This document shows positions 27,001 through 30,000 of a DNA stretch of 35,222 nt, one piece after another. The stretch spans positions 1 to 35,222 of the IMG/VR virus record IMGVR_UViG_2541047123_000042. One strand, given 5' to 3'. Source of the stretch: a virus (taxonomy: Duplodnaviria; Heunggongvirae; Uroviricota; Caudoviricetes). The position numbers are program-made. Numbering within the stretch: the first letter of the stretch is position 1; every line of letters begins with the position of its first letter.

Positions 27001-30000
27001 CTTCCCGTGAAACGTGCGTTACCGGTTTTTCGCTGCCATGTTGCGCAAGCCAGCGAATGGGCAGTTCCTGACCGGAAATCGGCAGGAGCATATTATCCTC
27101 AATCTCAGCCATGTCTTCGCCATTGACGTTGGTATTGTCAGAGCTGGCTGGTTTGTCCTGAACTGAGGGGGAAGGCGCTATAAATATCATTGTGATGCCA
27201 TCTTCCCCGCCTTTTTCATAGCGGTTGCAGAATTCAGTATCGAACACACCTTCAGGCGGCAGGTCATTAACAATGGGCAAATTCACGCGAACAGGTTTTT
27301 TGAAATCCTCTTCGTCAAATCCAGCATCGTCCATTGCGACAACACCCCGTGATATTGCAACCGATAATTTTTTTGCTGTGCGCCAGTAAAAACCGCCTTT
27401 AATCCCAAGGCGTTTTCTGACTTTGTCATTTTTGGCTTCGTAATACAGTGCAATTTCTTCTTTATCAGTGCTCATTGATAAACCTCATAACTATTTTAAG
27501 GTTGTACGAATCCCTGCCATTGCTGGCATGCTTAATCAACGGGTATGGCGTTAATACGGCTGGCGGGTTATCCAGCCGGTATTTCGTTATTCAGGTACAG
27601 CGATACTTTGTTTAACGGGAGACATTCACCGGAAATTTTTTGCTCGTCTCTTGCCTGATGGCAGGATTCTTTACTGGCATAAATTCCGGTAATCACATTC
27701 TGTGGCTCACCTGTTATAAGAAAAACCGTCATCATCAGTGCAAACGCTGAACTCACTGCTGCCCTCCGAAAATGCCAAGTTCAAGAAGGGCAATTCTGGA
27801 GAGTATGGAATTATCATTGAGAAGATAAGGCTCATATTTTCTCATCCTGATGGCGTCTTCAGTAAACTCCCGGTTACTGAGCAGAATACCAATATTAAAA
27901 CACCCTTCAGACGTATTAACGTTTGGTAGTGACGTTTCCATTATCGCGTCCTCAACAATGAATTTTGTGATGTGGTGCCTGGTGCCTCCAGGTGACGTTA
28001 ACCAGTTAACAATTAACGCCGGAATACAGAATCACCCATAACGCTGTTTTTAGCTTTAACTGTTCCGCGTGCGCTCAGCCGCATTCACCACATCACAAAA
28101 TTCACTTTAAAAAGGGCGGCAGAGCAGTCACGGAGTAAAACTGATACCGCCAAACGTCACCAGAAAATTGATAACAGAAGGCGTTGCAGCGGGGTTGTCA
28201 CTTAAGCGTATGGTCAACCTGACAACCCGGTGTCCTCAACGGGGGAAGGAATAACCCCTCCATACTTACCGCCGCGCCATTTCGCGGATTGCCACAACCG
28301 GAAGCGCACGGTCGACGAAAATTTAACGACAGGCTATCTATGAACCAGCTACCTCGCCGTGCGCTTTCGCGTTATGGTCTGACTTTTCAGGGAAATATCC
28401 TTTCAGTAAACTGTCAGTGCCGGATGCTCACCCGCGTCCGGCGCACGCACTCCACCTCACCCGTGGAGAACTACTTAATTACCAACCTTAGCTTCGTTGG
28501 TTAGCTATTAACGCGGGTATGTAATCATTCTGGCAATGCTTAATGCCGCTGCTTTTTCCAGATTGGTGATATCCTGCTCCAGAGCGGACAGTTTTTCAGC
28601 CTGCTTAGCCCTGGCTTCATTGGCCCATTTCAGATCCTGCGCTGCATTAATTTTCTGGCGCATCCACTCATAAAGTTCATCATCGGTATAGTCTGGTGCG
28701 ATGATGACGGGTTCTCGTTTCTGCATACTGATTCCTCGCGGTGCTGTTTCGCTTATCAGCCGTTAGATTTTGCCGAGCTGGAAAGCGCCTGTTTAAATTC
28801 GTTGAAGCTGAGAGCTTCTTCGCCGTCGGCAAGACCTTCGAAGTATTCTTCATAAGCCTTTTCCATGATTGTGTCGAAATCCATATCACTCACCTGAGTT
28901 TCTTTCCAGCCAGCGACGGGCACCATTTTCGGTTTTAAACGTTTTGCTTTTGGTATACGTCATCGCGGTGAACGTGCCGTCCTGGTTGGGGAACACGCCA
29001 CATACCAGAGATTCGCTGTTGCCAAGATCGATAGTATCCATGCTGACCTCATTTCCCCTTAACGCCGGGTAGCGGAACTGTTTGCTGAGAACACCGTGCG
29101 GTGTCTTGATGGGTGGTAATTTAGTTTTCTCATGAATGTTGGTCAAGTATTTTTAATGAGAAAACTCAATATTTAATGCAAAATAAAGCCAATACATTGA
29201 AATGTAAGGCTTTAAAATTTGTGAAGGGGGTTACTGATGTTTGTTACGTTTGCGAGCTTCTAGTAGCTCGGTGAATAGGCGATTAAAATTCTCAACGCGG
29301 GCACGGAGTTCGCTGATTTGTGCTTGCTGCTCTGATTTTGGAAGTGCGCGATACAATCGCAACATCTCCAACTCATCTTCCGATAAGTCTAAGGCGCTGT
29401 TGAGTGCAACTGGTGGATCTGGTGTTTTATCCTCGTCACCAAACAGTATCCAAGTTGGTGAACATTGCAATACCTCAGCCAGGCGATGCAAATTTTGCCC
29501 GCGCGGGGCTGTATGGTCGCTTTCCCATAGTGAAATTGATGAGCCAGATACGCCAGCGGCTTTGCTTAAATCGTTTTGACTTAAACCAACCTGTTTGCGT
29601 CTTTCTCTAATTCGTTGACCTAAAGTTTTCTCGTTCATATTTAGATATCTTAATCACCCTTGACTTGAGATTCCTTGAGTGATTACTATTGAGAAAACTC
29701 AACTTTGGAGGGGTGATGTTTAAATCAGACGTAATTAATTTTTATGGGACGAAAGCCAAAGTAGCGAAAGCTGCTGGTGTTGATCCATCTGCTGTTTCTC
29801 AATGGGGGGAACTGGTTCCTGAAGGTCGCGCGATGCGCCTGCAAGAGGCATCCGGCGGGGAACTTCAGTACGACCCCAAAGTTTATGACGAATATCGTAA
29901 GGCAAAGCGGGCGGGGCGGTTGAACAATGAAAATCACCCCTGAACAGGTTTGTGAGGCTCTGGATGCCTGGGTATGTCGACCAGGAATGACACAGGAGCA

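Follow-up and report, generated by a model that had tools for sequence, protein, structure and literature searches.

The inverted repeat between dicF and dicB in an O157:H7-type prophage: a probable RNase III double-cut helix that closes an STnc100-like domain

What is the long inverted repeat doing between dicF, a small RNA (sRNA) gene, and dicB in prophages of Escherichia coli? The question is raised by the minus-strand dicF-dicB (dicBF) locus of a Caudoviricetes record in IMG/VR, IMGVR_UViG_2541047123_000042, which was analysed over positions 1 to 35,222 (the window, 35,222 nt). DicF and DicB are toxic inhibitors of cell division carried by most E. coli, with several copies in enterohaemorrhagic E. 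coli (EHEC), and the dicF-dicB region is matched in 4,719 of 5,426 complete genomes. The analysis described below puts the probability that the inverted repeat is a ribonuclease III (RNase III) double-cut site of the dicBF transcript at roughly 0.7.

The two arms of the repeat (27959-27977 and 28086-28104) are 19 nt long, 100% complementary and 108 nt apart. All other perfect inverted repeats in the window are shorter; the longest among 200 dinucleotide-preserving shuffles was 16 nt, and 0/200 reached 19. An initial annotation of the sequence had reported the 19-bp repeat as bracketing DicF. The repeat itself was recovered, while its placement had to be revised: DicF, terminator included, is upstream of both arms, and what they enclose is the dicF-dicB spacer. 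The second of the two strings quoted for it, given as 28085..28106, in fact occupies 28086..28107, and the two palindromes noted inside the repeat are present as the hairpins P5 (27992..27978) and P4 (28020..27994). In RNA, one G-U and one A-U pair are added to the repeat to give a helix of 21 base pairs (bp), called P1 (28106..28086 with 27977..27957), whose 5' arm starts 3 nt past the U-tract of the DicF terminator. The 21-bp helix is part of the minimum free energy (MFE) fold of the minus strand from 28175 to 27900 (-98.3 kcal/mol, z = -4.8). The features of the region are collected in Table 1.

Table 1. Window coordinates of P1, the enclosed domain and the neighbouring dicBF features
Feature	Position	Strand	Basis	Remarks
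P1 5' arm AGUGAAUUUUGUGAUGUGGUG	28086..28106	(-)	inverted repeat I1, MFE fold, covariation	bp1 = A28106, bp21 = G28086
P1 3' arm CACCACAUCACAAAAUUCAUU	27957..27977	(-)	inverted repeat, MFE fold, covariation	bp21 = C27977, bp1 = U27957
Family 5' box GGUGAAU	28083..28089	(-)		GGUG is the inner P1 end, AAU the linker to P2
P2 hairpin, 'type B' GCGGCUGAGCGCACGC	28067..28082	(-)	RNAalifold	5 bp, one bulged nucleotide, pentaloop
P3	28021..28066	(-)	RNAalifold	GGA 28066..28064 with UCC 28023..28021; interior variable in length and sequence
P4 hairpin	27994..28020	(-)	RNAalifold, 11 pairs, 3 with changes on both sides	GTTAAC..GTTAAC palindrome
P5 hairpin CCUGG-AGGCA-CCAGG	27978..27992	(-)		CCTGGTGCCTCCAGG palindrome
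Family 3' box CACCUGGAGGCACCAGGCACC	27974..27994	(-)	pattern search across Enterobacterales	
Sub-threshold STnc100 match	27909..28116	(-)	RF02076, 39.8 bits, E = 2e-7	model positions 1-206 of 206
Upstream interrupted 22-bp stem	28292..28377	(-)	fold; core is repeat I4	28377..28354 with 28315..28292
DicF sRNA, 53-nt form	28114..28166	(-)	Rfam RF00039; identity to K-12-type copy	
dicB Shine-Dalgarno (SD) GAGGA	27949..27953	(-)	read from sequence	3 nt past P1, 7 nt before AUG
dicB coding sequence, 62 amino acids	27753..27941	(-)	list of open reading frames (ORFs); Pfam PF05358 DicB, 115.7 bits	

Conservation of P1 was examined in 18 leaders from at least seven genera, which were aligned with MAFFT and given a consensus structure with RNAalifold. 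The set comprised the window, K-12 Qin, Rac, Shigella, an Stx phage, Lelliottia, Pseudescherichia, Scandinavium, Buttiauxella, Klebsiella and viral contigs. RNAalifold recovered P1 with 19 pairs, together with four internal helices, and 96.4% of the P1 cells were paired in this set selected for flank pairing. Changes on both sides were found in 8 of the 19 P1 pairs, against 3.4 ± 1.2 in shuffles, of which 0/500 reached 8. When the partner strand was slid by 1-3 columns, P1 pairing fell to 39-57%. The number of further pair types in P1 was an unexceptional measure (39/500 shuffles), and over the whole structure 14 of 43 pairs changed on both sides versus 7.2 ± 1.5 in shuffles.

The most convincing part of this conservation is provided by the leaders of Lelliottia, Klebsiella and Buttiauxella, in which a helix of about 21 bp is formed in the same register by quite different arm sequences. 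Closer to the window, the K-12 3' arm reads CACUGCAUC, which yields two G-U wobbles that pair in the dicB-sense RNA only, and the Rac-type leaders (GAUGCGGUG/CACCGCAUC) differ from the window (GAUGUGGUG/CACCACAUC) by a two-sided change from U-A to C-G. P1 exists as an RNA helix and is under selection as RNA. The long-range stem that had been proposed at the outset is thereby upheld by covariation in an independent alignment and by the strand-specific G-U variants, as well as by folding. Covariation of the extended P1 across prophages, in the leaders of dicB, kilR and other early genes, appears to be new.

To place P1 in the processing of the transcript, published RNA lengths were mapped onto it. 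According to papers citing Faubladier 1990, a 72-nt form of DicF is made by RNase III from the full-length messenger RNA (mRNA), and 72 nt counted from DicF +1 (28166) end at U28095, which is bp12 of the P1 5' arm. The numbering of Ragunathan et al. 2023 was anchored on the K-12-type copy, L001, at the promoter dicBp (TTGACC-17-TAATCT, +1 at about 909-910). With this anchor, 190 nt counted from the published 813/814 RNase III cut lead into the U-tract of the DicF terminator, the 1,608-nt RNA stops just beyond a terminator-like hairpin after ydfD, and the 3' end of the 1,146-nt dicBp transcript falls at L001 2054-2055, corresponding to bp12/bp11 of the P1 3' arm. The 72-nt and 1,146-nt ends, mapped for the K-12 allele from second-hand accounts to a precision of about 1-2 nt, would face one another across the middle of P1, staggered by 2 nt at the 3' side.

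The cuts would accordingly fall after U28095 (bp12) in the 5' arm and after C27967 (bp11) or A27968 in the 3' arm. The pairs between them are bp11 G28096-C27967 and bp12 U28095-A27968. In vivo rules for RNase III call for about two turns of duplex and for paired positions between the cuts that include at least one G-C; P1 supplies the G-C pair, and it reaches the length of about 22 bp with 19 Watson-Crick pairs in a row, the G-U and the A-U, plus the abutting 5-bp P5. Just outside the inferred cuts, the U-A pairs at bp 8-10 of P1 are invariant in 18/18 leaders. Because the published ends meet at the centre of the helix, with fitting stagger, pairs and length, P1 is read as an RNase III double-cut site. 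RNase III-dependent ends very probably lie at the centre of both K-12 arms, as judged from the literature and coordinate mapping. We infer that the same cuts would be made in the O157:H7 allele, in the kilR leader and in other leaders, that the core would be released, and that dicB expression would be affected.

A known RNase III cut had seemed at first sight to explain the stem, and this was rejected, since Ragunathan et al. 2023 discuss only the cut upstream of DicF; the downstream cut is deduced from the 72-nt and 1,146-nt lengths. The upstream cut has a stem of its own, as the interrupted 22-bp stem upstream of DicF holds the mapped 813/814 cut (about 28299/28298), by which the 5' terminus of the 190-nt DicF precursor is generated. 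Each of the two mapped RNase III cuts in the operon therefore lies within a helix of about 21-22 bp. DicF and its maturation by RNase III have been on record since 1990, and the finding of the stem is mostly a rediscovery.

The spacer enclosed by P1 carries a domain of five helices, in which P5 abuts the 3' strand of P1 without a linker and one P3 pair (alignment columns 53/117) is changed on both sides in 8/18 sequences. In a permissive Rfam scan, this element scored 39.8 bits for STnc100 (RF02076), short of the gathering score of 47; the RF02076 consensus structure holds the same long-range closing helix. A search with the core CACCnGGAGGCACCnGGCACC located it at 120 loci or more in each of two collections, genomes and viruses, across many Enterobacterales genera, and a GGUGAAU box was found 80-130 nt upstream of the core in 212 of 222 unique copies. 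The window has both GGUGAAU and CACCnGGAGGCACCnGGCACC, in an element that measures 116 nt with the two boxes included (family mode 100-120 nt). Free-standing copies reach 48-90 bits, against 31.9-42.6 bits for the leaders of K-12 Qin, Rac, Stx 75/02 and Lelliottia, and only one long-helix leader attains the threshold (47.8).

The closing helix, P2 and P5 are shared by the window and STnc100. All five P2 pairs are retained in 153-155 of 155 copies at a fixed register without alignment freedom, and C-G/G-C swaps in P2 divide the window type (GCGGC..GCnCGC) from the common type (CCCCC..GGnGGG). The middle pair of P5, which the search left unconstrained, is complementary in 182/182 copies (GC in 161, UA in 20, AU in 1), compared with 5/10 chance hits that lack the 5' box. 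As a gene of its own the element does not qualify: no promoter-like site was found upstream of it, and it is followed by the SD and dicB, with no terminator. The spacer has the STnc100 fold and boxes, yet it is below the Rfam threshold and is not a free-standing gene; it is described here as a sub-threshold STnc100-family domain. No paper linking STnc100 with the dicF-dicB or kilR leaders was found, DicF is never mentioned in the 2026 Pas/STnc100 survey, and in EDL933 0/11 annotated STnc100 copies adjoin any of the four DicF copies. The assignment of the spacer to an unannotated STnc100-family domain appears to be a new link.

Two further observations concern the family as a whole. When the first hairpin is paired as in RF02076, the window type (28067-28082) has two mismatches, while pairing one register over, with one bulge, is obtained in 153-155/155 copies of both types and equals the RNAalifold pairing; the curated structure of RF02076 may be shifted at this hairpin. 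STnc100 copies also occur in tandem and interleaved with phage transfer RNA (tRNA) genes, at L084 3717-5512, L009 5491-5933 and L005 1705-2616, in Citrobacter braakii, Salmonella diarizonae and phage P7. The domain topology, together with the tRNA genes beside some copies, had suggested tRNA mimicry or a link to tRNA arrays, which was rejected. ARAGORN found no tRNA in the window, the loops fit no T-loop or D-loop motif, and no CCA follows P1; only 7 of 60 STnc100 loci have any tRNA within 8 kb, so the association is not general.

How far a long P1 goes with an embedded position was examined by classing copies according to what follows them (SD and ORF, or terminator), a division that is independent of P1. 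Contiguous P1 is usually 6-10 bp across the family, and 21-22 bp in a minority. The median flank duplex was -30.2 kcal/mol for copies before an SD and ORF (n = 41) versus -14.1 for those before a terminator (n = 109). Promoter-like sites with a start at the P1 base are enriched before the terminator-type copies (5.99 versus 3.86 shuffled; 15% at 9/12 or better), and none were found upstream of 27 long-helix leaders. Helix length separates embedded leaders from free-standing sRNA genes, which appears to be new. Diverse ORFs follow the long-helix leaders, encoding DicB, Kil, an Ash-family regulator and several PHROGs without an assigned function, and the repeat-bounded block also stands alone upstream of kilR (Rac-type), of Kil (Shigella phage 75/02 Stx) and of terB/tciB (P7).

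In E. coli and Shigella, the leader always comes directly after a GGCGG..CCGCC-U5 terminator hairpin, and the sequences 5' of this hairpin differ. In the window the hairpin is that of DicF, and in Rac that of a DicF-like RNA below threshold (39-41 bits). Other genera lack the hairpin, and the leader is therefore the more widespread module. The Rac-type DicF-like RNAs (L002 2452-2506, 41.1 bits; L003 2451-2506, 39.1 bits; gathering score 48) have a different 5' single-stranded sequence and lie directly upstream of the kilR leader, which in L002 occupies 2508-2691. Further DicF-like variants were seen in Stx phage 75/02, L185 and L025, and DicF may belong to a family of paralogues with different seeds. 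In an E. coli contig (L007, reverse-strand offset 6530), the order found in the window is inverted, in that a short-helix, window-type STnc100-like element precedes a Rac-type DicF-like hairpin.

In the mechanism proposed here, polymerase would read through the DicF terminator, and the 150-nt dicF-dicB spacer would fold as a P1-P5 domain of the STnc100 family. The inverted repeat would be the closing helix of this domain, lengthened from the 6-10 bp of the family to 21 bp, and the extension would serve as a double-stranded processing stalk that RNase III cuts centrally in both arms, after U28095 and about C27967. Three products would result. The 72-nt form of DicF would lie at the end of the upstream ydfABC-dicF RNA, with its 3' end at UGAAUUUUGU^GAUG; an STnc100-like core of about 128 nt (28094..27967) would retain a 9-bp P1; and a dicB-ydfD mRNA would start about 25 nt before the AUG. 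The 9-bp P1 of this putative core would be the same as that of free-standing STnc100 genes. That the core is a third, stable RNA product of dicBF, of STnc100 type and about 128 nt long, and hence that STnc100/PasD RNAs are produced by two routes with one coupled to a toxic gene, is a tentative proposal to which we give less than even odds. If it is true, such RNAs arise either from their own promoter and terminator or by RNase III excision from dicB/kilR leaders, and RNA output is tied to the expression, and perhaps the dampening, of the toxic gene behind the leader.

Several points weigh against a double-cut site. The RNase III link is drawn from secondary citations of Faubladier 1990 and from length mapping with a tolerance of about 1-2 nt, and the RNase III data concern the K-12 allele rather than this prophage. 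Neither the stem nor a downstream RNase III site is ever made explicit in the dicBF texts consulted, where the 1,146-nt species is described only as 'encompassing ydfABC-dicF', and the main text of transcriptome-wide RNase III maps shows nothing for the dicBF operon. In the Lelliottia leader, both pairs between the inferred cuts are A-U. The 18 aligned leaders were chosen by strong flank pairing, which inflates the percentage paired, and many are closely related. A long closing helix could also exist only to aid folding of the domain. On such an account P1 is a clamp that lets the STnc100-type domain fold alone inside a long translated transcript, with RNase III incidental or absent and the function of the domain lying elsewhere, for example in stabilisation of the downstream mRNA 5' end or in binding of Hfq or another factor. 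A clamp agrees with the pairing of long P1 with embedded context and short P1 with stand-alone genes, with the domain and invariant boxes across genera, which imply a function beyond the duplex, and with literature on the free-standing relatives PasD1/2, which are Hfq-dependent sRNAs. It is nevertheless considered unlikely, given that two published ends, as relayed in citing papers, are opposed at the P1 centre with an RNase III-like stagger and that a simple clamp has no need of an invariant U-A block beside the inferred cuts.

Effects of the stem on processing or on dicB translation had both been suggested initially; published RNA lengths speak for processing, and predicted accessibility speaks against translational control by masking. 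P1 ends 3 nt before the dicB SD and 16 nt before the AUG, and the spacing from core to start is fairly constant (median 37 nt), all of which would suit a control stem whose formation or melting closes or opens the dicB ribosome-binding site and in this way directly governs how much toxic protein is made. The helix includes neither the SD nor the AUG, however, and the mean predicted unpaired probability from SD to AUG over 26 leaders is slightly higher with P1 (0.55) than without its 5' arm (0.44) or for the initiation region alone (0.49). Masking is unlikely because P1 excludes the SD and raises predicted access, and direct control of this kind is rated as very improbable; an indirect effect of P1 cleavage on dicB translation is possible. 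The repeat might instead be a feature of the DNA, either the terminal repeats of a miniature mobile element or a protein-binding palindrome, as the repeat-bounded block of 146 bp forms a separate homology unit upstream of kilR, Kil and terB/tciB. Changes in the arms are compensatory, including the strand-specific G-U pairs, and the interior hairpins covary. The hallmarks of a miniature inverted-repeat transposable element are also missing, with no target-site duplication (the flanks are AAAG and UUGU) and the block in sense orientation just upstream of the next gene in every annotated case inspected. A DNA-level origin is hardly credible on these grounds. Processive antitermination, as by HK022 put RNA, was likewise rejected, as the free-standing members of the family have terminators after them and are observed as separate sRNAs. 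The preferred reading thus remains that of P1 as a double-stranded RNase III site.

The identity of DicF was also established. Model RF00039 matches the minus strand at 28165..28114 over positions 1-52 of 52 with 76.7 bits (gathering score 48), and the 53-nt DicF (28166..28114) is this match plus one extra 5' U. The match and terminator reported in the initial annotation are confirmed, and on alignment the DicF letters, as well as the Rfam score, are the same in the window and in the K-12-type copy. DicF has a 5' single-stranded seed UUUCUGGUGACGUUU, a GC-rich terminator hairpin (28151..28115) and a U-tract of U5 (28113..28109). By ORFs and annotated homologous loci, it is positioned between ydfC and dicB in a DicA-type repressor operon. 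The minus-strand genes are a DicA-like repressor, ydfA/B/C-like ORFs, dicF, dicB, a ydfD-like ORF and an exonuclease, and a Cro/DicC-like gene is divergent from this set. A lambdoid prophage integrated beside ompW in E. coli O157:H7 shares 99.4% identity with the window.

Some additional observations were made around DicF. Its seed UGGUGACGUUU can pair with dicB codons 2-5 (28152-28167 with 27922-27937, minus strand; 11 bp here, 3 of them G-U in K-12), a duplex of -14 to -17 kcal/mol that is seen in the MFE fold and as repeat I2. A functional role for this pairing was rejected, and it was judged to be probably a chance match, 6-23% of shuffled targets doing as well. Upstream of DicF within the 190-nt precursor, positions 28183-28298 (minus strand) are separately conserved at about 90% identity in Stx2c phages, phage cdtI and others; they also match the 'dicF-like region' of bacteriophage P1 at 76% identity and do not overlap the Rfam-defined DicF. 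Elsewhere in the window, a full-length sok antitoxin RNA (34898-35072, plus strand; Rfam RF01794, 111.7 bits) marks a hok/sok type I toxin-antitoxin locus in this prophage, and hokD is annotated at the equivalent place in O157:H7.

With P1, a concrete and mutable structure is available for the known RNase III cuts, and the STnc100-family spacer connects three subjects that have been studied apart, namely how DicF is processed, the sRNAs of the STnc100/PasD kind and how prophage kil genes are controlled. Should none of this hold, what is left is a processing site of an ordinary and already characterised kind.

Among known systems, the closest is the dicBF operon of K-12 (Qin), in which DicF is identical, the gene order from the dicA-like repressor to the ydfD-like ORF is the same, the spacer is about 94% identical, and the RNase III-dependent ends, as published and cited, map onto P1. 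The window copy differs in that it resides in an intact-looking lambdoid prophage next to ompW of E. coli O157:H7, its dicB allele has diverged, and Watson-Crick pairs occupy the two places in its helix that are G-U in K-12. STnc100 (RF02076) and PasD1/PasD2, which are prophage-borne in Enterobacterales, have the boxes, closing helix, P2 and P5 in common with the window element. For the PasD relatives, Hfq-dependent trans-acting regulation is described in the literature. The window element departs from STnc100 in its score of 39.8 bits against a cut-off of 47, its 'type B' P2 and its P1 of 21 bp instead of 6-10. Unlike the STnc100 genes, it is without a promoter or terminator of its own and has an SD and ORF directly after it. 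RNase III signals are familiar from the lambda N leader, from the intercistronic sites of the T7 R1.1 type and from the processing stalks of 16S and 23S ribosomal RNA. In such signals, a helix of about two turns is formed by sequences on either side of a structured RNA or ahead of a gene, both strands are cut, and polycistronic products are separated. In contrast to these phage and ribosomal RNA stalks, the putative P1 stalk closes a domain that exists elsewhere as a free-standing sRNA gene.

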